Positions 2,746 through 30,570 of a stretch of 35,567 bases of DNA are shown here, in pieces. Within the stretch, counting starts at the first letter, position 1; every line of letters begins with the position of its first letter. The stretch is from Candidatus Thalassarchaeaceae archaeon (GTDB lineage: Archaea > Thermoplasmatota > Poseidoniia > Poseidoniales > Thalassarchaeaceae), in contig JASLKH010000095.1 of NCBI GenBank assembly GCA_030747675.1, forward strand, positions 1-35,567, written 5' to 3'. The notes below the pieces were generated by a model that made no database searches, was not told the DNA's origin, and saw only the letters and a program-made list of their open reading frames with translations. A program made the position numbers and the translations under genes.

Positions 2746-5361
2746 TCACCCACACAGATTTCGCAGATGTTGTACAACAAGATTTGCTGTGGGAATTGTA
2801 TGATCCTCTAGTGGTGGTGCAAATGGAACAGGTGTATCTAGAGCCCCAATCACGGCTGGTGGGGCTTCCAACGTCCAGAATGCTTCTTCTTGTATGCGGC
2901 TGCTAACTGTGTGACCCAATGCCCCAGTATACTGTGCCTCTTGCAAAACCATCAATCGACCTGTGCGTTTGACACTATCAACACAGGTTTTTGCATCAAA
3001 TGGAGCGAGAGTACGTAAATCAACAATTTCAATTTCCTTTCCTTCTGCGGCCAATGTTTCTGCTGCTTTGAGAGCAACGTGTACCATTGCTCCCCATGTG
3101 ACTAGTGTTGCATCAGAACCACCACGGACAATATTTGCCTTTCCAATTTTGTAAGTCCCACCGGATTTGATTACTTGTTGAACCGAATCTGTATCGACTT
3201 GCATGTGAATTCTGTCTCCCCAACCAGTAATTCCTCCCCGGAGACCATACATCCCAAGGTGTTCTAAGTATACCACGGGATCTTGTAAAGAGGAGGCCTC
3301 AACGAGTAAGTCAAAGGCATCCTGAGGATTGCTTGGGAAACAGATTACAAGACCTGGATCATTGAGGAACCAAGATTCAATCATATTCGCATGAAATGGC
3401 CCACTACGTGTTTTTGCTCCCAGTGGTATTCTGACAACTAACGGAACATCTGCACCCCATCGCCAGCGCAGTTGAGCCGCGTTATTGATTAGAGGATTCA
3501 TTGCAAGAGCTGCGAAACCACCGAATTGAATTTCTGCGATGGGTCGCATTCCACCCAAAGCTGCACCAGTGGCTGCGTGAATGATGGCGGCTTCAGAAAG
3601 TGGCATATCGAGTAAAAGATCACCATGTCCAGCATTCTTGAGAGGTATTGTCATCCCAAATGCTCCAGCAACTTCCATATCTTCTCCCATGAATATTGTT
3701 GATGACCCATAACGTTCGGCGATATTGACCAACCCATTCTGAATCGCACGGCTGTAGGACCATGCATTTGCATCATCCGAGAATTGCAGAGTTATTTCCC
3801 CAGGTGGAACCGGTGCATCACTTGGTGTTGAATCTTGGGTTTTCATTCGTTGAAGTTGCATTTCATGAGTATCAGCATCATGGAAACTAGTGATTCCTTT
3901 GGTGACTGTATGCGGTTCTGGCCAATCCATGGCCTCCATTTCAGCACGCCCAGCATCGACGTATGCTTGTTCTTCTTCCTCCATTCTTCCAAGTACTTGT
4001 TCTTCTACCCCCAATTTCAGAAGTAAAGAACGATGGTTTGGCACTGGATCCTTTTCTTCCCAATAAGCGAGCATCCCTTTGTTTGCATAACCAGGGGGGT
4101 TCCCACTAGGTGAACCAAGGTACAAATCATCATGATGATGTGCATGTCCACATCCACGCATAGTTTCAACATGGATTAGCACTGGTCCTCCACCTTCCAT
4201 TGCGAATTCTCTTGCAGACGCGATTGAAGCATGAAAGAGAGTTGGGTTTGAACCATCAATTGTCCAAGAGGGGATACCCATTGCTGCACCTTTGTCCCCC
4301 CATGTTTCAGATGCAGATTGCCCTACTGTGAAGGTATCAAGAGCAATTTGGTTATTTTGAATCATGAAGGCTATTGGTAGTCCACGAGCTCCGGCGAAAT
4401 TCATGGCTTCCCAAAACTCTCCTGACGAACTGCATCCTTCTCCCACAGGTGCAAATTGGAATCTTTTCATTTCCAACCGCTTACTGGCCAAAGCAAAACC
4501 TGTGGCAGTAGCACTGGCAATTGGTAATGGCGCAGTAGGAGGTAATACGCCGAGTTCCATATTGCCAATATGCAAATCTCGTCCTCCTGACCCGGGATTT
4601 CCACCATCCATGTATGAATCAGCCTTCCCCATCTGGGCAGCAAATAATTCAGTTGGTGTTTGGCCCATTGCTAAAGCGAGACCAATGTCTCGAATCATTG
4701 GAGCAACAATATCGCCAGTATGCATTTCTCCACTTGGCTTATCTTTTGCAAGTTGCAAAGCGGTTGCGCAAGCAACAATACCTTCCTGCCATGTTGAACG
4801 AAACCCCTTCCCTCCAAATTTTCCACCATCAGGAGTTTCGATACCATTTGTGAAAAGATCCTTCAGATGACTATCAAGAGCACGTGTACGAGTCATCCAC
4901 CTCTGCCAATCCATTCGTTGATCAATGGTGACTGCAGCTGCGTGAGCAATTCTACGGAGACAAAGGCGCACATCAATTAGCAAGCGTTTGGCCCGCCGAG
5001 ATAGGTGAAGTGCCCCAGTTCTTCTCGGGATTATCTCTTTTTCATCTATTTTCAATTCTGTTGAGCGCTTTGAAAGATTTTCTTCCAACAGGCTAGCAAA
5101 TGATTCACTGAAAAGGTGGAAACTAGGCCCATCCCATTCGGAGCCCTCAGATTCAGTTGTAATTTCATCAAAGAGCCACCCAATGAGACGAAGATGGCCA
5201 TCATGGCGCTCGGCTATGAATCGAATTAATTCTGATTTCACCATGTCTCTTTGAATGGGTTTGGAAAAATCAAGGTGAACCCTTGGTTTCCAATTCTCGC
5301 CCCAAAGATTTGGGAGATCAGTCTGGCCCAACCTAAGTCCTCCGGACTGTTGGTTTAGCAT
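2746..5361 (-). CDS. Fused 2-oxoacid dehydrogenase E1 alpha+beta (TPP-dependent; likely branched-chain) with an extra N-terminal domain
   Basis: TPP motif GEG-x(n)-QNN; beta part with MGED, DMPLSEAAI, EIQFGGF, GPFHA and IVDLRTLAPFD. It lies directly upstream of the acyl-CoA dehydrogenase. Confidence 0.92.
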   Translation of the reverse strand: MLNQQSGGLRLGQTDLPNLWGENWKPRVHLDFSKPIQRDMVKSELIRFIAERHDGHLRLIGWLFDEITTESEGSEWDGPSFHLFSESFASLLEENLSKRSTELKIDEKEIIPRRTGALHLSRRAKRLLIDVRLCLRRIAHAAAVTIDQRMDWQRWMTRTRALDSHLKDLFTNGIETPDGGKFGGKGFRSTWQEGIVACATALQLAKDKPSGEMHTGDIVAPMIRDIGLALAMGQTPTELFAAQMGKADSYMDGGNPGSGGRDLHIGNMELGVLPPTAPLPIASATATGFALASKRLEMKRFQFAPVGEGCSSSGEFWEAMNFAGARGLPIAFMIQNNQIALDTFTVGQSASETWGDKGAAMGIPSWTIDGSNPTLFHASIASAREFAMEGGGPVLIHVETMRGCGHAHHHDDLYLGSPSGNPPGYANKGMLAYWEEKDPVPNHRSLLLKLGVEEQVLGRMEEEEQAYVDAGRAEMEAMDWPEPHTVTKGITSFHDADTHEMQLQRMKTQDSTPSDAPVPPGEITLQFSDDANAWSYSRAIQNGLVNIAERYGSSTIFMGEDMEVAGAFGMTIPLKNAGHGDLLLDMPLSEAAIIHAATGAALGGMRPIAEIQFGGFAALAMNPLINNAAQLRWRWGADVPLVVRIPLGAKTRSGPFHANMIESWFLNDPGLVICFPSNPQDAFDLLVEASSLQDPVVYLEHLGMYGLRGGITGWGDRIHMQVDTDSVQQVIKSGGTYKIGKANIVRGGSDATLVTWGAMVHVALKAAETLAAEGKEIEIVDLRTLAPFDAKTCVDSVKRTGRLMVLQEAQYTGALGHTVSSRIQEEAFWTLEAPPAVIGALDTPVPFAPPLEDHTIPTANLVVQHLRNLCG

Positions 5362-12959: not shown

Positions 12960-13146
12960 ATTGCTCACTCTGCCTCAACCCCCGGAGGGGCTTTTGAACC
13001 CCGTTCTTTTCGGTAATTGATGGTCGGTTGTATTACTACGTTTCACTCTCTAAATCGGGGGCGATATGCCCCCTCTTTATTGTTCAATGAGGTTTTCCAA
13101 TATGCCCGAAAATTGAAGCCATGTGGCCGCTCGTAGTTATTTGAAT

Positions 13147-15078
13147 ATGCCACGTCGTAGCCAAGTTCACCCGATAATAGTGCTCCTAATGTTCTGTTTG
13201 AGCAGCATTCCTGCTTCAGCGGACACCGGCGACACCTTGCCTGCGTTTGATGAAGTTACAATTGGTTCTGGTTTCGAATTTATTGATTCAGGTCCAACGA
13301 CCATTTGGTCGTCATATGGCCCAGGTGTGGCGTGGGGAGATTATGATGAGGATGGTGATCAGGATGTGTTTATTACAGCACGATTCGATCATTTAGGTCA
13401 AGAAACTGCAGAATTGTTGGGGTATTCACACTTTTCTGAGATTCCATCCAATTCTTCTGATTTTATTGCATTGGATGAGAATGCAACAGGCACAACTCAC
13501 TTGATGAGAAATAATGGTGATGGGACTTTCACAGATGTTTCGGAAAGCAGCGGTATTTCAACTGATAACTCAACAACACTTGGTGCTACATGGGCCGATT
13601 ATGATGGTGATGGTGATGTTGATTTGTATCTGTCAAATTATGGACATGCAGACTTAGAAAATCCCTATGGCACCGGTGCTGCCAATCAGATGTACAGAAA
13701 TGTGAATGGAACATTCGTTGATGTTACGATTGAATCTAATCTTGGCAACCCTGGTCATTCCTCAGCATCGGTTTGGGCAGATTATGATCACGATGGAGAT
13801 TTAGATTGTTATTCAATGAATTTCGGAATGATTGATGAATATACTAATCAAGCTAGAACAGAGAGTAATATCTTGTATCGAAATGAGGGCGATTCAAATG
13901 GTGATGGAATTCCCGAATTCAGTGACGAAACGAAAGAGGCTGGCGGAGTATATGGTCAAAAAGAATCTGCAGGGGCTGATTTCGAGACGTTTATCGGTCC
14001 AGCATTAACAATTCAATTAACCGGCCCCGTGAATCCAAGCGCCCAGATGTCATTCCCTGCAGGAATACGAGAAGAACCCACAGGGTCGGGAATGTCATGG
14101 GCTGCTGTTTGGTTCGATGCTGATGGAGATGGTTGGGAAGATTTGTATATTGCAAGTGATTTTGGTACTTCACCATTGTATCGTAATAATCAGGATGGAA
14201 GTTTTGAAATTGTTACAGCAGAATCTGGTTTGAATAAGCAAGGGACAGGAATGGGTGCACATGCCGCTGATATTGATAATGATGGTGATTTAGACCTATG
14301 CCAATCGAATTTCGGGCCGAATTTTTTATGGAATAATATGGGTGATGGCACTTTTTCAGAGGATTCTGAGATCTTAGGTTTACACACTAACACATTGGTG
14401 AATTGGGATTGTCATTTCTTTGATTTTGATTTGGATGGAGACCTGGATTTGTGGTTTGGTGTTGGCCGAATTAATCTTTACATTTCTAGCCAGTATAATT
14501 CCCTTTACCGAAATGATGGAGATACCAATGGTGATGGCTACATTGAATTCACAGATGTAGCTGCAGAGATTGGTTTGTCTGAAGATGACAAAACTATGGG
14601 TGTTGCTCTTGCTGATTATGACAATGATGGCGATTTAGATTTGTTACTCGCTCATGCCGACCGTTCTCCCCGTTTGTGGAGAAATAACGCTGTTGAATCC
14701 GGGGGTGGACAATGGATCAAAGTCCAATTGCATGGTGCTGGAGCATCATTGGGTGGCTCCAACTCGAATGGAGTAGGTTGTTTAGTCACTATTACTTTGG
14801 AAGATGGAAGTATATTGAATCAGCACGCGTATGCAGGTGATGGTTTCCTCGGTAATGGGGATCCTAGCGTATTTTTTGGTCTAGGAAATCAAAGTATATC
14901 TGAAATCTCAGTGACATGGTCGACTGGACACATCCAGTCACTTTCGAATATTACTGAGAATTCAGTTATTGACATTTTCGAGATTGTTCCTGATGAGCCA
15001 TCTTCGAATAATTTCTCAATGTTCTTCAATATCATTATGGTACTGTCAGTTGCCTTTTTGCTATACAATCGCCTGTGA
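13147..15078 (+). CDS. CRTAC1-family surface protein: seven FG-GAP-like repeats, ASPIC/UnbV domain, C-terminal TM anchor
   Basis: Signal peptide; seven DxDxDGDxD repeats (e.g. GDYDEDGDQDVF, ADYDNDGDLDLL); SNSNGVG...FFGLG...VTWSTG; hydrophobic C-terminus. Likely start ATG 13147. Confidence 0.9.
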   Translation: MPRRSQVHPIIVLLMFCLSSIPASADTGDTLPAFDEVTIGSGFEFIDSGPTTIWSSYGPGVAWGDYDEDGDQDVFITARFDHLGQETAELLGYSHFSEIPSNSSDFIALDENATGTTHLMRNNGDGTFTDVSESSGISTDNSTTLGATWADYDGDGDVDLYLSNYGHADLENPYGTGAANQMYRNVNGTFVDVTIESNLGNPGHSSASVWADYDHDGDLDCYSMNFGMIDEYTNQARTESNILYRNEGDSNGDGIPEFSDETKEAGGVYGQKESAGADFETFIGPALTIQLTGPVNPSAQMSFPAGIREEPTGSGMSWAAVWFDADGDGWEDLYIASDFGTSPLYRNNQDGSFEIVTAESGLNKQGTGMGAHAADIDNDGDLDLCQSNFGPNFLWNNMGDGTFSEDSEILGLHTNTLVNWDCHFFDFDLDGDLDLWFGVGRINLYISSQYNSLYRNDGDTNGDGYIEFTDVAAEIGLSEDDKTMGVALADYDNDGDLDLLLAHADRSPRLWRNNAVESGGGQWIKVQLHGAGASLGGSNSNGVGCLVTITLEDGSILNQHAYAGDGFLGNGDPSVFFGLGNQSISEISVTWSTGHIQSLSNITENSVIDIFEIVPDEPSSNNFSMFFNIIMVLSVAFLLYNRL

Positions 15079-16947
15079 TTATTCTTCTTCATCGGAGAAG
15101 GTTTTGCTTCCAATCCAAGTCATAGTTAGTAGGCCTCCAACACCAATTATAATCAAGCCCAAAATGAGAGATGATATTTCAACTGATTCTTCTGTTTCCG
15201 TTTCAGATATTTCTAGGTTCAAATGTTGGCACTCCATTTTTGAGACATCATGCTCGGCGAAGAATACATCACACTGAATGTTCTCAATTTCAGTATTCCG
15301 AAGAATGATATCAGCCAAACTTGTTGTTTTCAACTCAATTCGAACATCATCGAGTTCGATATCATTCTCATAGTATAGCGGATCACCATCCCTTAATCTT
15401 AGGAATTGGTCCCGAATAAGAGCATCCATGGTTTCACCAATAGCAGAATCCACTAAATGGTCTTCTGCTAGCATTCCAATAAGTGGGTCGATGTGACCAG
15501 GGTCATCGTTTCCATAGGCATTTGAAAGGCGATTGAATATTTCTGAATTACTAGTGATATTGGAGAAATTTGTGATATCTTCTAAGCCAAGATGTTCACG
15601 TATTGTGCCATAGTCAGCCAAACCATGGTCACGCCCTCGTTGGATGTCTATTGCACAAAGATCAGTTCCTCCAGCACCTGGGATTCCGAATAATTGATTA
15701 CGTAAATTATCACCATAATACACATCATTAGCGGGTTGTGTACTCATCGCCATACCTCGAATCAGAGGAGATATTCCTCCTTGCTCTGTAATGGGCTTAG
15801 TGGTCCAAAAACCTTCAGCTAAAGTCATGTGGCCAGCCGGAGTTCGATCCTCATTCGCTCGTAGAAATGTGTCCCCAATTTGACTATGACCCATTCTAAA
15901 ACCAACAGTTGCAAATGCATTTGTCACAGTTGAATTAATACTCGCATTATATTCAGAATAGGGTTCCAAAGTCACTCCTAAACTGGGCAAGAATTCTTCG
16001 TAGGTAATTGCTTGAATCTGTGCGGCAATTAGTTTTCTAGCACGTTGGTATATTTGTTCATCACTCCAGCCGGGGTTTCTTTCCCCGATTTCTTCAGCTA
16101 ATCGGTTATGCTCGCGTAAGAACAGTACATGAATGGCCATGAGGGCTATGTGTTCGTTCGCTCTTGAGTCACCAGCAACAAACCGGACATCTGCGCTAAA
16201 TCCAGCAAAAGACATTCCTGGTGCAGATGAATCATCACTATCGGCAATCGGAAGTAAATCCCCTTCCTCCCAATCACTTACTTTCATTTTACCATCTGAG
16301 AAAGTTCGAAGCCAATCAGAGCGGTTTTGATCTGACCCATATACTACACTTCCATCAATCCATGTTGTAATTGAATTGGGGTGCTCTCGGCCGATAACTG
16401 TTCCATTTTCATTGGTTTGGTTCTCATATAGCGACCGGAATACAAGTAATTTTCCAGGGGAGGGAAACTCCAGGTCGTCTTCAGGAATGTCGATATCAGC
16501 ATGTTCTGGAATTCCTGCTTCCCCAACACGACCGTTTTGGGTGAGGGTGAAATCGATTTCATGTGTGATAAATTGCCCCCAAAGCCAGTTGAAATCAGAC
16601 AAACCCCTTTCATCTGAAATGAATTGCTTCTCATCACAAATTTCATTGCTAATCATACGTGGATTTGGGAGGTCCGATAATCCCATCCAATTTGCTCCTT
16701 GATCATGTGTCGCTGGCGCAAGTCTCCCAAGTAAACTCCCCGCCGAACCTCGCATAGGTTCAGATTCGATTAAACCAATCCCATCCACAGGATATTTTGA
16801 TTCAGGAATTGTTTCACCAGCGACATACGTATCTGTAGTTTCAGCCTTAACAATGGCTGAAGCACTGGCAGGAGATATAATGATGAAAACCATGGCTATT
16901 GCTCCAAAGAGCGATATTGGGAACCCGGCAACACTCACTCTTCGCAT
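15079..16947 (-). CDS. Heme peroxidase of the peroxidase-cyclooxygenase (animal-type) superfamily, secreted, C-terminally membrane-anchored
   Basis: WGQFITHE (distal Gln/His), TTWIDGSVVYGS, GDSRANE (distal Arg/Glu), LREHNRLA, FRMGHSQ (proximal His) and IQRGRDHGL. Likely start ATG 16947. Confidence 0.92.
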   Translation of the reverse strand: MRRVSVAGFPISLFGAIAMVFIIISPASASAIVKAETTDTYVAGETIPESKYPVDGIGLIESEPMRGSAGSLLGRLAPATHDQGANWMGLSDLPNPRMISNEICDEKQFISDERGLSDFNWLWGQFITHEIDFTLTQNGRVGEAGIPEHADIDIPEDDLEFPSPGKLLVFRSLYENQTNENGTVIGREHPNSITTWIDGSVVYGSDQNRSDWLRTFSDGKMKVSDWEEGDLLPIADSDDSSAPGMSFAGFSADVRFVAGDSRANEHIALMAIHVLFLREHNRLAEEIGERNPGWSDEQIYQRARKLIAAQIQAITYEEFLPSLGVTLEPYSEYNASINSTVTNAFATVGFRMGHSQIGDTFLRANEDRTPAGHMTLAEGFWTTKPITEQGGISPLIRGMAMSTQPANDVYYGDNLRNQLFGIPGAGGTDLCAIDIQRGRDHGLADYGTIREHLGLEDITNFSNITSNSEIFNRLSNAYGNDDPGHIDPLIGMLAEDHLVDSAIGETMDALIRDQFLRLRDGDPLYYENDIELDDVRIELKTTSLADIILRNTEIENIQCDVFFAEHDVSKMECQHLNLEISETETEESVEISSLILGLIIIGVGGLLTMTWIGSKTFSDEEE

Positions 16948-17113
16948 CAATAGGACCTGATTGTGATTCACAAATAAATGGTTAGTTCGTTTCCATAGAT
17001 TCAAGGCGAATGAGTGTTACACAACTTGTGCTCCAGCAGAGAAATGGTCAGAGTCCACACTCAAACCCTTTTCAAAGTGAGAGCGTTTCGGCCGGAAGGC
17101 CGGAGGGACATAT

Positions 17114-23014: not shown

Positions 23015-23107
23015 GCCGCGTCTTCCCCAAATAGCACGAGTGGCCATCGTCTTTCGTTTCAATTGTTTGATTACAATCGGAACGAGATGCGCTCGTGCGG
23101 ACGCGGT
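23015..23107 (+). ncRNA. Candidate structured RNA or cis-regulatory leader upstream of the RPA operon
   Basis: Manual pairing gives about 25 bp in the hairpin 23034-23098, closed by an 8-bp stem 23015-23022/23100-23107. G-U pairs favour the + strand. Confidence 0.4.
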
Positions 23108-23133
23108 CTTTTGACCCCCAGGAGTTGCTCAAA

Positions 23134-24837
23134 ATGCCTAACCCAGAAGAGTTTGAAGAAGAAGTAAATGCGGTAAAAGAAGCCGTACCAGATGCAGATG
23201 AGAAAGCGATTGCCGATGAATTTCGGCGATATCGAGACGAATTTCTAATACCTCCAAAGGAGGCCCTTCGTAGTGTACTCAAGAAATTCCAGACAGAAGC
23301 CGGAATGGAAGTCACCTCACCATCAAATCTACCAAATAATCGACCAGCAGCAAAATCGGTTGATCGTTTCGAACAACTGGGTTCCGATGATTCAAATGTG
23401 ACTATAGAAGTACAAATTGTCACATATACTCCTCGAATTCAAATGGTAAGGGGAGAAGAGCGACAAATTGCATTTGGTTGGATTGAAGACAATCCTTGGG
23501 AAGATGGTGGAAATAGGACTCGATGGGACTTCAAAGATTGGGGGAACCATGCTGAGTCACTTGCACCAGGTTCTGTGGTCCGACTAGAGGGTGTTTCAGT
23601 AAATGAATGGAATGGTAAAAGATCAATCAATATCAATCAATCAAGTCGAGTTGCTGTATTGCGTGCAAGTGAGCGTGCAGTGGTTATGGCGCCTTCCGAA
23701 CCAACTCCAATTTCTCAAGTTTTAGATATGGATGGTTTTGCCACAGTCGTTGCTAGGGTTATCTCTGTTAGGCAACAGTCAATTACAAGAAAAGATGGAA
23801 CGACAGGGGAACTAATCAAGGGCCGAATTGCCGATGATTCCGGCACCATGGGATTCGCTTGTTGGAGTGAGTTTGATCACCCTGTTGGTACTTTATTAAA
23901 AATTGAAAATGCTGCGATACGTCGTTTTAGGGAAACACCTGAATTGAATATCGGAGAGCGAACCAAAGTAGAAGTATTTCATGATGGTAATTTCGCTTCT
24001 CTTGATGAGTTAGAAACATCATCTGTAGCCCAAATTGAAGATTTCCGTGATGGAGCTGTTGATGTCAATACAGTAATTCAACTTACATCTTGGGATGAGC
24101 GCAGGTTCACAAATCAATCTGGTGAAGAAAAGTCGGTATGGGGTGGTGACGTAGTTGACCCAACAGGTTCTTGCCGTCTAACTGCATGGACAGAACTACC
24201 GATTGATGTGAAATCATTACCTATTGCGATTAAATTGAAAAATGCCAGAATTCGAAGTTGGCAGGGTTCTCCAGACTTAGTTGTAGATCGTCCTGATCAA
24301 GTTGAAATTCTCAAGAAAATCCCATGGGATACAATTGACCCTTCCGAGCACACAATTGAAGTTACATTTTCAGAGTTAATGAGCGGTGGTTCGCGAAAGG
24401 GAGTCACTAGTGAAGCAACAGTAGTTGCAGTCCAGACAGGTTCAGGCATAATTCATCGATGTCCAGAATGCAAGAAGGCCATGCGTGATGGTGCTTGTAG
24501 AGACCACGGGGCACAAGCAGGTGTTGAAGACTTACGACTTCGCCTTGTTCTCGATGATGGAATACACAATGGGGCCCTAATCATTGCTCGTGAAGCCGCT
24601 GAAAAATTTCTCGGCCAATCAATGGATGATGTATCAGAGTCCTTCAAAATAGATGGTGGTGAAACATTTCACAATGAGTTACGTGCTAAATTAATTGGAC
24701 GTCGTTATCGATTCAATGGGCGAGCAATGATTGATAATCAAGGTGCTTTAATTATGGCAGATACATTTGAAGAATCAGACCAGGATGTGACCGAATTGGC
24801 GCAGAATGTCAGGGAAACTTGGGGGGTATTTGTTTGA
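23134..24837 (+). CDS. rpa: Replication protein A (multi-OB-fold ssDNA-binding protein with Zn finger)
   Basis: Repeated OB motifs (GRIADDSG, VVDPTG, LVLDDG) and CPEC-x9-CRDH. Likely start ATG 23134, after a GGAG SD. Confidence 0.85.
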   Translation: MPNPEEFEEEVNAVKEAVPDADEKAIADEFRRYRDEFLIPPKEALRSVLKKFQTEAGMEVTSPSNLPNNRPAAKSVDRFEQLGSDDSNVTIEVQIVTYTPRIQMVRGEERQIAFGWIEDNPWEDGGNRTRWDFKDWGNHAESLAPGSVVRLEGVSVNEWNGKRSININQSSRVAVLRASERAVVMAPSEPTPISQVLDMDGFATVVARVISVRQQSITRKDGTTGELIKGRIADDSGTMGFACWSEFDHPVGTLLKIENAAIRRFRETPELNIGERTKVEVFHDGNFASLDELETSSVAQIEDFRDGAVDVNTVIQLTSWDERRFTNQSGEEKSVWGGDVVDPTGSCRLTAWTELPIDVKSLPIAIKLKNARIRSWQGSPDLVVDRPDQVEILKKIPWDTIDPSEHTIEVTFSELMSGGSRKGVTSEATVVAVQTGSGIIHRCPECKKAMRDGACRDHGAQAGVEDLRLRLVLDDGIHNGALIIAREAAEKFLGQSMDDVSESFKIDGGETFHNELRAKLIGRRYRFNGRAMIDNQGALIMADTFEESDQDVTELAQNVRETWGVFV

Positions 24838-25790
24838 CTGAACCACGCCGTAATCGAAGGCAATCAGCCATTAGATTATTTGCTCAAGAATACAATGAAT
24901 CAAGTTTGCCTGATGGCGGTCAAGGGGAATTTGACCCTAGATTCATTGTTACAAAATTGGGAGCCCGGGTCAACCGTATGATGGCTGCTGGAGTAATTGA
25001 ACGCTTAGAACGTCGGGATACAGAAAGGGGGCCAATGTTTTCTGGACGTATACGGGATCCAACTGGTATGCACAGTTGGAGTGTGGGTTCATTCAAACCA
25101 GAGTTACATACTGATTTGGAAGAATTATTGGCAAGATTCGAAGGAGGAGATAGATTCCTAATGGCTTGTATTGGTAAATCAAGTCATTTTGCTAGAGAAG
25201 ACGGAGGTATATTCTGTCGAATGCAGATGGAAGAATTTGCTATTATCGATCGAGATACTTATGCACATTGGTTGGTTGAAACATCACACCACACCATGCG
25301 GCGTATCGATGCACAGAGTAAAGCACAATCAGCCGATGGTAGTTCGGCAGCAGAATTACGTAATGCTGGAGTTCCTAATGACCTTGTCGAAGGTTTAGAA
25401 CTTGCTCTAGATCACTACGGAGAATGGGATCCAGAGGGTTACAAAGTGGGCGTTCTCCAGGCCCTTAGTGCCGCAGAGGGAAGGATGGTATCATTTGAAG
25501 AGCATGAAGCAATGGATTCTTCTTCTGAACAAGAGAAAATCGTCGATGAAAAACCTGCAACACCCACAGTCGATGCTGAACCAAGTAATACTGCCGATAT
25601 AGAATCAATTGTCCTTGAAATAATCAAAGGAAATACAAATGAGCGCGGAATAGATCACGACTCAATAGTAAAGCAATGTGCTCTCAAAGGCATCACTGAT
25701 GAATCTAGCATAGAAGATGCAATTGATTGCCTTCGAGATGACAAATGTGAGATTATGGAGCCTAATTTTGGTTGGTTCTTGCCAATTTAG
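24834..25790 (+). CDS. RPA-associated / RPA32-like protein (OB fold plus C-terminal winged helix)
   Basis: RRQSAIRLFAQE...TKLGARVNR...RIRDPTG pattern. The TTG start overlaps the rpa stop (TTGA), after a GGGGGT SD. Confidence 0.75.
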   Translation: MTEPRRNRRQSAIRLFAQEYNESSLPDGGQGEFDPRFIVTKLGARVNRMMAAGVIERLERRDTERGPMFSGRIRDPTGMHSWSVGSFKPELHTDLEELLARFEGGDRFLMACIGKSSHFAREDGGIFCRMQMEEFAIIDRDTYAHWLVETSHHTMRRIDAQSKAQSADGSSAAELRNAGVPNDLVEGLELALDHYGEWDPEGYKVGVLQALSAAEGRMVSFEEHEAMDSSSEQEKIVDEKPATPTVDAEPSNTADIESIVLEIIKGNTNERGIDHDSIVKQCALKGITDESSIEDAIDCLRDDKCEIMEPNFGWFLPI

Positions 25791-25864: not shown

Positions 25865-26209
25865 ATGGCTCAGGCTGGAACAGTTTTCATTCGCGGTTTT
25901 GAGGGGGACTGGTTACAGTTTGTGGACTGCAAAATAACTGTTGATATTCGCCGTCGAATTACTCGCGAAGTGAAGCGCGGAGGTGAAGGAGATGATTTAC
26001 AAGACGAGGGTGCTGAATCAGCAGTTTACACTCTTGAAGGCAACATCGGCGTTTCAGGTTATCGAGAAGTACTAGCAATTTTTCGCTCTGGTGAAGTTTG
26101 GTTGTTAGATCCTTTCACTCAAGACGAAATTAAAGTTGCATTCCAAAGCTTGCATTATGAAGGCGACAATGGTACTTATTCCTTTGAGTTAATTGAGGAT
26201 GTGATTTAA
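25865..26209 (+). CDS. Hypothetical 114-aa beta-rich protein resembling the phage DNA-circularisation N-terminal (Mu gpN) / tail-tube-initiator fold
   Basis: RRITREVKRGGEGDDLQDEG..YTLEG, LLDPF..IKV and SFELIED resemble the recalled family pattern. GAGG SD; the stop overlaps the next ATG (TAATG). The CDS is well supported; the family call is moderate. Confidence 0.55.
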   Translation: MAQAGTVFIRGFEGDWLQFVDCKITVDIRRRITREVKRGGEGDDLQDEGAESAVYTLEGNIGVSGYREVLAIFRSGEVWLLDPFTQDEIKVAFQSLHYEGDNGTYSFELIEDVI

Positions 26210-26793
26210 TGGCCTCTGAGCGTGAGGAATCTTCAGATCTCCTTTACGCTATGAGGGCAATTATGGTTATGATGAATTCGGGCATTGGTCTTGAAGCAGC
26301 CCTTCAGATGATTGGAAGAGGTGGATATGGTGTCATATCAAAGGATTTCCAAGGTATTCTTGAAAATTTGCAGCGGGGAGCCAGACTGGAAGACGAATTT
26401 GGAAGACTCTCAACCTCTGTAAAGAGCAAGGCATACAAGCGACTTTTGGGTACGTTGAGATCGAATGTATCGAGTGACACAGACCTCGTGCGTGCATTGC
26501 AGCAACAAGCAGATCGAGAGGAGGAAGAGCGTAATGAGAAACTTAAGGGCTACATCGAGACTGTAAGTGGATTACCTACGATGTTACTGACTTTGGGCAT
26601 TCTGTCACCAATTATCTTCGGGATTCCAGCAATGTTGCCAATTATTGCGCCCGACATTTTGAATAGTGGCCTAGCTGGAATGGGCTCTATTGCTCAGGCA
26701 GCGGCATGTTTTGGTCCGGCTTTATTTTTCACAACTATCTTGATCGGCCTAGTTGGCTATCGCGCACATTCTAAAGACCCGGGGGTAATTTAA
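26209..26793 (+). CDS. Type II secretion system F-domain platform protein (TadC/FlaJ-like)
   Basis: MNSGIGLEAALQMI..GYG.IS.DF helical T2SSF pattern and C-terminal TM helices. Confidence 0.8.
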   Translation: MASEREESSDLLYAMRAIMVMMNSGIGLEAALQMIGRGGYGVISKDFQGILENLQRGARLEDEFGRLSTSVKSKAYKRLLGTLRSNVSSDTDLVRALQQQADREEEERNEKLKGYIETVSGLPTMLLTLGILSPIIFGIPAMLPIIAPDILNSGLAGMGSIAQAAACFGPALFFTTILIGLVGYRAHSKDPGVI

Positions 26794-26794
26794 T

Positions 26795-27541
26795 TTGGAT
26801 TTTCTCTGGCAAATTTACGATTTAGCATCAAATAGTTTATTCTTGGTTTTGATGCTACCACTCGCCTTACCCTGTGCTGCTGGAGCGATTCCAGGACTAA
26901 TTGATCGTTTAAGGCGCAGAAATTTGGAGCAAGCATTACCTGAAGTTTTGGAATCAATATCATCCAGTATTGGGGCAGGTCTTGGCTTACAACAGGCATT
27001 AACTGACATATCTCAGAAAAGAGATGATGAAACCGGAAAATTGCTCAAAAAGGCAATTCAACGCTCTCACGCCACTACTTTTGATGCTGCTCTAGTTGAA
27101 TATGCATTGAATAGTAGGAGTACATTGATTCAACGAGTCATTAACCTCCTGACTACGGCGATTGAACAAGATGCACCCTTACAAGAAGTTACCAACTCGA
27201 TGTCAATAGAATATGATCGCTTGAATAAATTGATTAATCTACGAGAAAAAGAAATGATGGGGCAATCAAGCCTTTTGTTAATGCTCATGTGTCTTCTCCT
27301 ACCCGGAATAATGGGTGCGATGTTTGCCTTATTCGGTTTAGCATCAATTGGGTCCTATTGGGGCCATATTCACGGCGTGATGTTGCCATATTTGATGGCA
27401 TCAGCCGCCCTCACAGTCGTCATCTCTGGTCGTATGTTGGGTAGAACCAAGCAAGCATTGTGGTGGATTCCATTTTGGTCAGTCTTATCTGCTATGCTTT
27501 ATCTTGGTCTATTCGAAGGAATTCAGGGTTCGATGATGTAA
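26795..27541 (+). CDS. Type II secretion system F-domain platform protein (TadB/FlaJ-like)
   Basis: LEQALPEVLESISSSIGAGLGLQQAL; several TM helices; TTG start after a GGGGGT SD. Confidence 0.85.
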   Translation: MDFLWQIYDLASNSLFLVLMLPLALPCAAGAIPGLIDRLRRRNLEQALPEVLESISSSIGAGLGLQQALTDISQKRDDETGKLLKKAIQRSHATTFDAALVEYALNSRSTLIQRVINLLTTAIEQDAPLQEVTNSMSIEYDRLNKLINLREKEMMGQSSLLLMLMCLLLPGIMGAMFALFGLASIGSYWGHIHGVMLPYLMASAALTVVISGRMLGRTKQALWWIPFWSVLSAMLYLGLFEGIQGSMM

Positions 27542-27552
27542 GGTGATTGAAA

Positions 27553-28800
27553 ATGGCAGATGATGTGTTAACTCGATATGGTGTTGTTGAAATTTACATG
27601 GAACCCGGGCACCCTAGTCCAATGTACCATTATGGGGGGCATGTAGAACAGAACCCATATGGGGCCCTTGCGGCCTTATTTGCTGACGATCAGTTGGAGG
27701 AAGTGATGTACAACGGCGGCGCCCAGTGCGTGAAAATCGCTCATCGCGACCATGGTATTTGTCGAACAAATATTTGGGTGGATGATCAAGAAGGAATTGA
27801 GATCGCCAAAAATATTGCTGCTTTGACTAATGTGCCGCTGGGTGACGGACCAGGTTTAGTCCCGATATTTGATGGACGCCTTCCCGATGGTTCTCGAGTT
27901 AATGGCACACTCCCACCAATTTCACCAGATGGACCTACACTGACAGTCAGGAAATTCAGGGAAGATCCGATTACTATCATTGATTTGGTGAGATGGGGCA
28001 CAATTAACAGTCGACTTGCAGCAATGATGTGGGTTTGGGTAGAAGGACTTGATGCACGACCTGCCAACTTTGTTATTGCAGGTGGTACAGGTTCTGGAAA
28101 AACGACCACTTTGAACTGCCTTGGCATGTTCATACCTTGGGACAAACGCCTTTTGACTGTTGAAGATACAGCTGAACTGCAGGTTTATCACGACCATTGG
28201 TTGCGTATGGAAACAAGGCAAGAACGTCCCGATGGTACACTAGAAGTCACGATGGATGATTGTTTGAAATCCAGTCTACGTATGCGTCCAGACCGAATTA
28301 TAGTTGGTGAAGTGCGTGGCCCTGAAGCATCAACACTCTTGACTGCAATGAACACCGGTCACGACGGGTCATGTGGAAGTCTGCATTCTAATACTGCTGC
28401 AGAAACAGTCACTAGATTGTGTAGTGCACCAATGAATGTCCCACCGATTATGTTGACAGGACTTGATCTCATTATCATGCAGAGCCGAGTTCACCATGGT
28501 GGGCAAACTGCACGACGAATTACTGAGGTAGCCGAAATATCAGGAATGGAAGGGGACAAACCGCGATTGAATCCCATATGGAAATATGATGCATCGAAGG
28601 ATATGATTGTTGAAACAGGTGTGCCAAGCAAATTCCGAGAAACACTTTGTGACGTAGCAGGTATAAGACCTGCTGATTACGAAGCCGCTATACAAGTTAG
28701 AGAACAAATCATCCTTGATTTATTGAACAAGGGAGTTCGTGGTATTGAGCAGGTAACAAAGGTGTTTCAATCATACTACTCTTCAAATCGAAGAAGTTGA
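27553..28800 (+). CDS. CpaF/VirB11/FlaI-family secretion ATPase
   Basis: Walker A GGTGSGKTT, Asp box TVEDTAEL, LRMRPDRIIVGEVRG (Walker B), MNTGHDG and LHSN. AGGTGA SD before ATG 27553. Confidence 0.95.
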   Translation: MADDVLTRYGVVEIYMEPGHPSPMYHYGGHVEQNPYGALAALFADDQLEEVMYNGGAQCVKIAHRDHGICRTNIWVDDQEGIEIAKNIAALTNVPLGDGPGLVPIFDGRLPDGSRVNGTLPPISPDGPTLTVRKFREDPITIIDLVRWGTINSRLAAMMWVWVEGLDARPANFVIAGGTGSGKTTTLNCLGMFIPWDKRLLTVEDTAELQVYHDHWLRMETRQERPDGTLEVTMDDCLKSSLRMRPDRIIVGEVRGPEASTLLTAMNTGHDGSCGSLHSNTAAETVTRLCSAPMNVPPIMLTGLDLIIMQSRVHHGGQTARRITEVAEISGMEGDKPRLNPIWKYDASKDMIVETGVPSKFRETLCDVAGIRPADYEAAIQVREQIILDLLNKGVRGIEQVTKVFQSYYSSNRRS

Positions 28801-30570
28801 TTATTCGCTGGCTTCAGCGTCAAAACCTTTGGATAATCGCCCTAGTAATTCATCAGCCTTGTCAAGTTTTGTTTTAACCCTACTCACTGTTGAAATTTCA
28901 TTGGCTTGTTCGGCTACAGAAGCAGGAACTCCATGTGCTACTGAATCTGCAGTGGGTGCTGGCCTCCCCATGTCTTCTAAGAGACCACGAAGTGAATCAA
29001 CAACATCCGAAACTTTGTCTGGATCAAGCGAGAGTGCTGAAGGAAGCCCAGGGATGTCTTCGCTACCAATGTATCCCATCGCGGCGGCTAGAACACCCGC
29101 TGAAGAAATTGCTCTGGGACGAACTTCGGGGTGGCCCACATCCCATCCACGCCTCTCAAGGAAGCGAATAAGCAGTGCATGTTCAACTGGGCCAAATTGC
29201 CCATCTGACCTTCTGACAAGTGTTTCGACAATGCGTTCAAATGCTTCAATTTGCTCCTCAAATCGTTGTAAAGTCCGCATCGCATCCGCTGAAACATCTT
29301 GTGTTCCACGATATAGTACTTCCATTGCTCGATGACGACGTGCAGTCACAGGGTCCATTTCATCTTCGGATGCTCTTAGGCTAATTTGCAAATCAAATAG
29401 GCCATGGACACGACCGCTAATCCCTGGCAATTCCATGTCAAGACCTTCTTCCGCAGCCATGGCTTCAAATCGAACTCGTGCGAGGGCAATGTCTGATTCC
29501 TCTGAGTCAAGAATATCCTCTAAGGAATCTAGCAACTTTGCCCGGCACTCTTCGAGGCGACGCAATGCTTTCCGTTCTCTCCAAGAACCAGGGACTTGTC
29601 CACTTGCACTTGTTTCTTGATCACGTCTTCCTGCCATTGCTGTCAGTTCAGATAGAATGCGTTCGCGTACTGCTGCATGTGTGACACGAAATCCTTGTGC
29701 ACCCAAATCTTCAATGAATGCAGTAACATCATTTGCATCGTGTTCACGTCCAATGAGGAGAAACTCTCGGATGTGACAGTGTAATTCTGCCATTCTAGAA
29801 TCAAGTTCGATAAGTGCGGCTCCAGTGCCTTCGTCAATTGTAGATTTACCGAGTGGTAGAACATTTGCGGTTTCAGGTTCAACGATACCTTCTACTTCTT
29901 CAGGAGGTTCTTCTTCTGCTTCTGCAAGAACGTCATTCAATGCATCTACATCGACAGAATCAATTGATTCTTGAATCATTGCTGCAAGTTCCGCAGCTTC
30001 ATTTTCAGGTGGTGTAACAACCTCTTGGATTGAGACCTCAATCACCTCAGGGGTCTCATCAGGTGGAGGTGAAGGTGCCATTTGTTGGAATTTTTTTGGT
30101 GATTTTTTCCCACGTTTGAGACTTTTCTTTACTTTGCCCCATCCCCCATCATGAAGTGCAAGAACGCCGGCTACTCTGGAGAATAATTGTTGCTTACTTC
30201 CCGAACGCTGTAGTTCTAATGCCTTGCACAATTCATGCAATTCATCTCTGGTCGCTTCTGAAATTGTTTCGGGATTCAATTTTTTGGGATCGTGATTCAA
30301 ATGTAGCCATAAACGCTGCCGTTTCAACTTAATTGAGCCCGAGCGTTTAATTCCGAAGTACCCAAGTAATTCACCCAAGTCATTGTTTGGGATTTCTTGC
30401 AGAGATTCCCAGGATAAATCAACATCAGATAAAACTAATTTTTCTATGAGACGAGCGCGCAACTGCTCTACATTTCCTGCTTTGGAAATTTCATTTGATA
30501 TTGCTATTTCTCGAAGTTCATCGAGTTTTGCGGAATAGAACCCGAATAGCATATCCTCGTCGACATTCAT
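28801..30570 (-). CDS. Hypothetical protein with three tandem SAP/HeH-like motifs, basic patch, Pro/Glu linker and helical C-terminal region
   Basis: Three EL..L....L..SG.K..L..R repeats at about aa 12-44, 57-90 and 103-136. Confidence 0.7.
   Translation of the reverse strand: MNVDEDMLFGFYSAKLDELREIAISNEISKAGNVEQLRARLIEKLVLSDVDLSWESLQEIPNNDLGELLGYFGIKRSGSIKLKRQRLWLHLNHDPKKLNPETISEATRDELHELCKALELQRSGSKQQLFSRVAGVLALHDGGWGKVKKSLKRGKKSPKKFQQMAPSPPPDETPEVIEVSIQEVVTPPENEAAELAAMIQESIDSVDVDALNDVLAEAEEEPPEEVEGIVEPETANVLPLGKSTIDEGTGAALIELDSRMAELHCHIREFLLIGREHDANDVTAFIEDLGAQGFRVTHAAVRERILSELTAMAGRRDQETSASGQVPGSWRERKALRRLEECRAKLLDSLEDILDSEESDIALARVRFEAMAAEEGLDMELPGISGRVHGLFDLQISLRASEDEMDPVTARRHRAMEVLYRGTQDVSADAMRTLQRFEEQIEAFERIVETLVRRSDGQFGPVEHALLIRFLERRGWDVGHPEVRPRAISSAGVLAAAMGYIGSEDIPGLPSALSLDPDKVSDVVDSLRGLLEDMGRPAPTADSVAHGVPASVAEQANEISTVSRVKTKLDKADELLGRLSKGFDAEASE

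Follow-up and report, generated by a model that had tools for sequence, protein, structure and literature searches.

At the center of this study is a stretch of 35,567 nucleotides (nt) from a Candidatus Thalassarchaeaceae archaeon (GenBank assembly GCA_030747675.1, contig JASLKH010000095.1, positions 1 to 35,567; hereafter the window), in which a gene for a protein of 114 amino acids (aa), here named TT114, heads an operon of Tad-like type IV filament genes. TT114 is predicted to adopt the fold of phage tail tubes, and what appears to be new is the addition, in one lineage, of an accessory with that fold to a Tad-like type IV filament cassette; type IV filament machines and phage-tail-like machines have been treated as separate lineages of machinery. 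We tentatively read TT114 as a lineage-specific cytoplasmic accessory of the Tad-like motor, probably a ring, a reading in which we place somewhat less than even confidence. The cassette recurs in three families of the order Poseidoniales (marine Group II, MGII); TT114 leads it in almost every Poseidoniaceae genome and in roughly one in four of the Thalassarchaeaceae genomes sampled.

In the open reading frame (ORF) listing of the window, TT114 occupies positions 25865..26209 (+) and begins with ATG. Its TAA stop overlaps the ATG of the next gene, F1 (26209..26793, +), in the sequence TAATG, and it is translationally coupled to this first platform gene. F1 encodes 194 aa with a single T2SSF domain (Pfam E 3.3e-13, residues 16-137) and hydrophobic segments C-terminal of it, and is the TadB-like half of a split platform; a 1-nt gap separates its stop from the start of F2 (26795..27541, +), the TadC-like second half, whose 248 aa hold a single T2SSF domain (Pfam E 3.7e-6) and weakly match the NCBIfam models of UpsF and ArlJ/FlaJ in their C-terminal halves. 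The fourth gene (27547..28800, +) encodes a 417-aa secretion ATPase of the FlaI/TadA family (Pfam T2SSE, PF00437, E 1.1e-39), which begins 5 nt downstream of F2 if the TTG codon at 27547 is used as start and 11 nt downstream if the ATG at 27553 is used. The nearest NCBIfam models to this ATPase are those of FlaI (252.8 bits, cut-off 550, profile positions 147-518 aligned) and the TadA family (212.7 bits, cut-off 373), both scores lying well under the equivalog cut-offs, and the N-terminus of the protein is ~145 residues shorter than the FlaI model. Two hallmarks of type IV filament systems are present in the cassette, namely a T2SSE-family ATPase and two single-domain T2SSF platform proteins. 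The ORFs and Pfam matches bear out an earlier note on this DNA, made from the sequence alone, which had described a 114-aa gene as the first of four in an operon with two T2SSF genes and an ATPase gene, joined by a TAATG overlap and gaps of 1 and 11 nt, the last of these holding for the ATG start.

Upstream of TT114 and on the same strand lie two genes that overlap each other by 19 nt (23095-25790, +), one encoding an RPA-like protein of 580 aa with an Ssb-like OB domain and a cysteine-rich zinc motif and the other a 323-aa protein (p323) of no Pfam family; downstream, the convergent gene of a 589-aa SAP-domain protein (28801-30570, −) forms the edge of the cassette. Forty-five loci, spread over three families of Poseidoniales (f1, to which the window belongs, f2, and f3), have the genes in the order RPA-like, p323, TT114, F1, F2, ATPase; TT114 identities are 45-85% across the cassette loci, and cassette-ATPase orthologues are 72-93% identical across the order. 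Presence and absence were scored on sampled genomes, many of them incomplete. In five f1 genomes (91-97% complete) that lack TT114, the ATPase was likewise not found, and the genes for p323 and the RPA-like protein are kept (47-52% identity) and directly adjoin the convergent SAP gene. Since the cassette-less genomes join p323 to the SAP gene, TT114, F1, F2, and the ATPase gene form a single unit of insertion or deletion, gained or lost together as a block. The remaining distribution has the same shape: within f1 the cassette ATPase is confined to genera g1, g2, g3, g8, g10, and g11, all of which have TT114, and in f2 the ATPase was found in 139 and TT114 in 140 of 141 genomes. The synteny across MGII that the earlier note had suggested examining thus links TT114 to the T2SSF and ATPase genes, both in gene order and in block-wise presence or absence. 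A role in DNA uptake, suggested by the RPA and SAP neighbors, was set aside, the RPA and SAP genes staying adjacent where the cassette is missing. The RPA-like gene, the only match of its kind in the window's genome, and its p323 neighbor are kept in all Poseidoniales loci examined, with the cassette or without it, and p323 may be a hitherto unrecognized RPA2-like partner.

The fold of TT114 was predicted from two alignments. Model 1, computed with AlphaFold2 on a 24-row TT114 alignment (pLDDT 85.3), has nine strands and one helix, in agreement with the beta-rich character that the earlier note had ascribed to the protein; model 2, computed with AlphaFold on 11 distant, non-Poseidoniales homologues alone as a check on independence from any one alignment (pLDDT 92.4), has strands 9-27 and 36-52 as the two arms of a long beta-hairpin. 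The models predict for TT114 the fold of the tail-tube/Hcp-like superfamily, a beta-sandwich flanked by one alpha-helix. When model 1 was compared with the PDB in Foldseek, the best 50 rows were all tail-tube, initiator, or contractile injection system (CIS) chains (best E 1.7e-5, TMq ~0.7), among them the monocin and diffocin tubes, the baseplate hubs of Milano, 7-7-1, and Mu, CIS tube initiators, lambda gpV, and the tube of a gene transfer agent (GTA). VIA-align, an aligner independent of Foldseek, was run against 48,161 representative chains, and its best 34 rows for model 1 (Z 11.1 to 8.0) were all tail, CIS, Hcp, or Dit proteins; the VIA matches of the TT114 models aligned 103-113 residues at an rmsd of 2.5-3.6 and covered the whole domain. 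In BFVD, model 1 had 149 matches at E<=1e-3, headed by DUF6046 and 'DNA circulation, N-terminal', and in the ESM Atlas its nearest named clusters were DUF6046 and DNA_circ_N (PF07157), at TM 0.74-0.77. The four best Foldseek matches of model 2 were Milano 8fqc_U1 (E 1.2e-5), Mu 9ki1_0 (E 3.2e-5), Mu 9ki1_u, and 7-7-1 9rku_A1, and the Hcp1 part of 4ksr_A, an EpsE-Hcp1 fusion, was also among its VIA matches. Milano 8fqc_U1 gave VIA Z scores of 10.1 with model 1 (residues 10-127) and 10.8 with model 2 (residues 12-127), and residues 23-141 of 9ki1_0, the Mu DNA circularization protein N, gave 8.5 and 9.8, respectively (103 residues aligned with model 2). By these models, the predicted structure of TT114 comes nearest to the N-terminal domains of Mu gp43/N and the Milano hub protein. 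Two models, two aligners, and three libraries agree on the tail-tube/Hcp-like fold that the earlier note had proposed to look for with Foldseek.

The likeness to DNA_circ_N and Mu gpN that the same note had drawn from sequence holds at the level of predicted structure, as the score of 9ki1_0 illustrates, and is not supported by the sequence comparisons. TT114 matched no model of Pfam (E<=1), PHROG, NCBIfam, or PADLOC; the DNA_circ_N hidden Markov model (PF07157) gave no match to TT114 at that Pfam threshold and none to ten distant homologues at E<=10. The distant members reached only E 0.12-0.33 against PHROGs, and a profile search of PDB sequences with TT114 returned a single chance match (E 1.3). 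With hhalign, the N-terminal 140 residues of Mu gpN homologues were aligned to the Poseidoniales TT114 alignment at E 0.4 (probability 0.1%) and to the distant-member alignment at E 0.009 (probability 4.4%), neither of which supports membership of TT114 in DNA_circ_N by sequence, the latter value being not significant. The distant-member alignment does fall in the structural register, with a DLGRK-type hairpin end, a helix, and a PDFG-type turn, and this register with Mu gpN hints at a common origin and is no demonstration of one.

TT114 belongs to a small family. In a large protein collection, 17 close homologues were found (49-84% identity, mean column identity 70%), one of which, from a Candidatus Thalassarchaeaceae archaeon, is annotated at NCBI just as 'hypothetical protein'. 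An exhaustive phmmer search returned 53 cluster representatives, none outside this family; two long matches (P0044, P0066), considered as longer forms of TT114, look spurious, and no fused or longer form was found, which is weak evidence that such forms are missing. By profile search, the family is present in 188 of the 301 genomes of the class, being found in 140/141 of f2, 46/113 of f1, and 0/45 of f4 and f5 together, and outside Poseidoniales it is rare (8 of ~300 genomes of the phylum). A pattern scan of IMG/VR viral contigs with the TT114 alignment yielded no confirmed relative, and a scan of genome contigs with another alignment of the family returned three loci, all previously found. 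A maximum-likelihood tree resolves three groups: the cassette genes, a 'free' paralogue, and a clade from outside Poseidoniales. Since the free group holds both f1 and f2 members, the duplication that produced it is older than the f1/f2 split.

Apart from the cassette, family members stand in other surroundings. Five of the eight non-Poseidoniales homologues lie directly downstream of, and on the same strand as, genes for surface proteins of 860-1260 aa; these proteins have signal peptides and C-terminal membrane anchors, along with S8/CARDB, PKD/NosD, or Big_13 domains. The window's own genome holds a TT114 paralogue of 120 aa (46% identity; G000:C61:12878-13198, −; locus L009 8861-9223), ~28 nt behind the gene of a TSP3-repeat protein whose length is at least 736 aa; the contig ends inside this large gene, and the paralogue has no T2SSF or ATPase gene near it. 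In another genome (G010), one paralogue sits between two large surface proteins. At loci L069, L071, L072, and L073 of non-Poseidoniales Thermoplasmatota, family members of ~103 aa immediately follow large anchored surface-protein genes (an S8 subtilase with CARDB, a PKD/NosD beta-helix, and Big_13) in a recurring two-gene pattern. Locus L010 (1633-5960; GCA_036138275.1) holds a divergent family member, upstream of which are two tandem pairs of paralogous genes of no Pfam family (452/444 aa, 32% identity, and 249/271 aa, 35% identity), with a 1,384-aa S8 peptidase nearby.

Many members of the tail-tube/Hcp fold form hexameric or pseudo-hexameric rings. TT114 itself is small and acidic (12.9 kDa, pI 4.4) with a highest KD19 of 0.66, and a scan of its sequence for signal peptides, class III signals, and membrane segments found none, as would suit a soluble protein. 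A cytoplasmic ring stacked with the motor is favored here because many solved members of the fold are six-fold rings and the ATPase is hexameric. We suggest that, in an ancestor of Poseidoniales, one copy of TT114 may have joined, as first gene, a motor operon of three genes that already existed and comprised the split TadB/TadC-like platform and the FlaI/TadA-like ATPase. The protein would remain in the cytoplasm and assemble as a six-fold ring, which would dock coaxially on the hexameric ATPase or beneath the platform and there stabilize, position, or gate the motor, as a naturally evolved analogue of the engineered Hcp1 'assistant hexamer'. The type IV pilin-like substrates that the motor would in turn assemble would have their genes at other places in the genome. 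The geometry has an experimental precedent: when an Hcp1 ring was fused to EpsE, the ATPase of the type II secretion system (T2SS), the product was a stable hexamer with raised ATPase activity that was functional in vivo, and hexameric PilB was purified by the same strategy (PMC5061722). One may speculate that an added scaffold could offset the ~145 N-terminal residues missing from the cassette ATPase. In its most specific form, the proposal would make TT114 a domesticated phage tube-initiator domain that forms a six-fold ring and serves as a physical, stoichiometric subunit of the archaeal Tad-like motor, seated on the ATPase or under the platform; so specified, it is a possibility that we consider rather doubtful.

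Several observations weigh against assigning TT114 to the motor. Its fold is a prediction, and a common fold proves no function; the compact genomes concerned also place unrelated genes at tight spacing. Orthologues of the ATPase (~50% identity) occur in 34 of the 45 f4 and f5 genomes, none of which has a relative of TT114, and the four such loci that were read (L111-L114) consist of F1, F2, and the ATPase gene with nothing in the TT114 slot; given these sister-order operons, TT114 is no core part of this Tad-like motor type. The free paralogues form a clade older than the f1/f2 split and occupy varied gene contexts, and f1 genera without the cassette ATPase keep a relative of the free type (L115-L118). 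Two genomes that keep this relative (G014, G133) yielded no FlaI/TadA-like ATPase at E<=1e-20; free relatives in genomes without such an ATPase imply that the basic activity of the TT114 family needs no motor. None of the eight non-Poseidoniales homologues has T2SSF or ATPase neighbors. A candidate substrate, a pilin described below, tracks the cassette only partly, having been found in three of five cassette-bearing and none of five cassette-less f1 genomes. The earlier note had held that homologues unlinked to the T2SSF and ATPase genes in related genomes would speak against its proposal; the orthologues are linked, and the paralogues and distant homologues are unlinked, as is the motor of the sister orders from any TT114. 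Among the sister-order operons, one (L114; G049:C183, 750-4090) has two tandem copies of F1, and in f4 the genes upstream of F1 encode a conserved membrane protein of 235 aa and a protein of 900 aa.

Much of this evidence would also fit a motor-independent job: TT114 might serve large surface proteins from the cytoplasm, for instance as their chaperone, adaptor, or regulator, and its cassette copy would merely be co-expressed with the motor, both having a role at the cell surface. The five non-Poseidoniales homologues behind anchored surface-protein genes, the C61 paralogue behind its TSP3-repeat protein, and the G010 paralogue between two such proteins point in that direction, as do the persistence of free paralogues in the absence of the cassette ATPase and the sister-order cassettes that lack TT114. 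The large neighbors, however, have no common domain beyond one orthologous pair, most free paralogues have unrelated neighbors, and these genomes abound in large surface proteins, so that chance alone should produce some adjacency; moreover, the TAATG coupling and block-wise gain and loss bind the cassette copy to the motor genes. We consider this explanation improbable, though worth serious consideration. In every cassette locus, TT114 comes after the genes of the 580-aa RPA-like protein and p323 and is read in the same direction, and it might alternatively be a third, RPA14-like subunit of an RPA complex, unrelated to the motor. This idea is largely refuted, and we give it scarcely any weight: the predicted fold differs from an OB fold, the structural matches contain no RPA chain, the RPA and p323 genes are kept where TT114 is missing, and TT114 disappears along with F1, F2, and the ATPase gene and not with the RPA gene.

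The phage-like fold itself invites two further explanations. An exported, domesticated tail tube, serving as an envelope conduit or as a tube that the type IV-like motor extrudes, was among the proposals of the earlier note, and the tail-tube fold, the acidic hairpin R30-S52 that is the most conserved segment of TT114, and the long beta-hairpin of model 2 would accord with it. A conduit or extruded tube is nonetheless unlikely in the extreme, because TT114 has no signal peptide or membrane segment and the genome yielded neither a sheath nor a baseplate gene; TT114 also lacks a class III signal and measures only 114 aa, and the sister orders have the same motor without it. Phage_sheath_1 and Baseplate_J were not found in the window's genome, which is 78% complete, and the positive controls for these families came from three genomes. 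Likewise, no phage family was recognized among the window ORFs scanned, from which some small ORFs were left aside, and the neighbors are cellular genes, in line with the earlier note's remark that no other phage gene is recognizable there. TT114 might instead defend against head-tailed archaeal viruses as a decoy, a tube-initiator domain copied from a virus with which the host would poison tail assembly; its position in the cassette would then be incidental. A viral structural fold in a cellular gene and free paralogues in variable contexts are what such a decoy could produce; on the other hand, TT114 has no PADLOC match and no IMG/VR homologue by pattern scan, its inheritance looks vertical in two old clades, unlike that of patchy defense islands, and its neighbors are housekeeping genes, all of which leaves the decoy very unlikely.

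If TT114 is indeed an accessory of the Tad-like motor, the substrates would have to come from outside the operon, in which genes for a pilin, TadZ, or further accessories are lacking, and from outside the window, which has no pilin gene. Contig C59 of the same genome holds a Pilin_N gene (36.3 bits, above the cut-off); the genome also has other T2SSE loci, and in the single-contig genome G006 the orthologue of this pilin gene is ~6 kb downstream of the cassette. The prepilin peptidase family Peptidase_A24 gave one match of 24 bits on contig C97 of this 78%-complete genome, below the cut-off and with two internal stops. A separate archaellum locus with an archaellin gene and a 575-aa FlaI is on contig C56, and further T2SSE fragments are found elsewhere in the genome. 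A second type IV pilus-like locus (G000:C47:1-4400) opens with the end of a T2SSE gene, followed by small proteins with pilin-like N-termini, for example ORF 3897-4331 with a G/Q cleavage-like site; the genome-wide scan for class III signal peptides was crude and too noisy for use except at this locus. In other genomes, open frames of 4,518-4,669 residues (L106, G024:C9; L107, G002:C12; L108, G004:C3) have N-termini 44-47% identical to the class III signal and N-terminal helix of a conserved archaeal pilin, and it is possible, judging from these sequences, that they encode giant pilin-headed adhesins of Thalassarchaeaceae handled by a type IV-like motor. Elsewhere in the window, a 641-aa protein (15079-17004, −) matches Pfam An_peroxidase, the animal haem peroxidase family (E 2.2e-129), which is unusual for an archaeon, and beside its gene is that of a 651-aa FG-GAP/ASPIC-UnbV repeat protein (13123-15078, +), probably a surface protein.

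The hosts of the cassette are uncultured and among the most abundant archaea of surface seawater. Particle attachment is thought to shape MGII ecology, and the adhesion traits discussed in a survey of MGII genomes are the flagellar operon, thrombospondin, and flotillin genes only (PMC6461757). In a census of archaeal type IV pili (PMC4858521), the terms tail, Hcp, and marine group II are absent; a full-text literature search combining archaea, type IV pili, and tail tube returned nothing relevant, and our literature searches turned up no paper connecting tail-tube-fold proteins with archaeal type IV pili, nor a natural machine in which such a protein and a type IV filament motor work together. 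Should TT114 prove to be a ring subunit of the motor, it would represent a new class of accessory and a natural parallel of the Hcp1 'assistant hexamer', and the motor of highly abundant surface-ocean archaea may then put out pilins or giant pilin-headed adhesins. Should it not be a motor subunit, its family would still add to the tail-tube fold a new branch of cellular proteins in Thermoplasmatota, whose role may be linked to large surface proteins.

Among known systems, the hub N-domains of Mu gp43, Milano, and 7-7-1 are the best structural matches of both TT114 models and have a weak motif in register with the family. Those proteins measure 394-495 aa, whereas TT114 would be the bare 114-aa domain without their ~350-aa C-terminal part, and its gene, unlike phage hub genes, is cellular, conserved across an archaeal order, and free of nearby tail genes. 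Tail tubes and Hcp (monocin MttP, diffocin, lambda gpV/gpM, GTA, and the Hcp of type VI secretion systems) have the predicted fold in common with TT114 (TMq 0.65-0.74, Z 8-10); TT114 is shorter than most of them, is known here by its predicted fold, and resides in a 78%-complete genome in which no sheath, baseplate, tape measure, or type VI secretion gene was found. In EpsE-Hcp1 and PilB-Hcp1 (PDB 4KSR), a ring of the fold predicted for TT114 is set beside a T2SSE-family ATPase by an artificial covalent fusion, whereas TT114 and the cassette ATPase are separate genes, with no fused form found. The archaellum rings FlaH/ArlH and FlaX/ArlX, whose folds are unrelated to the tail-tube fold, would be comparable as accessory rings around or under a FlaI-type hexamer. 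Two TadC-like genes have been described in clade 4B of Thermoproteales (Makarova et al. 2016, PMC4858521). With the Tad core (TadA/CpaF, TadB, TadC), finally, the cassette has in common a FlaI/TadA-family ATPase and two single-T2SSF platform genes, and it differs from that core in an extra first gene of predicted phage tail fold.

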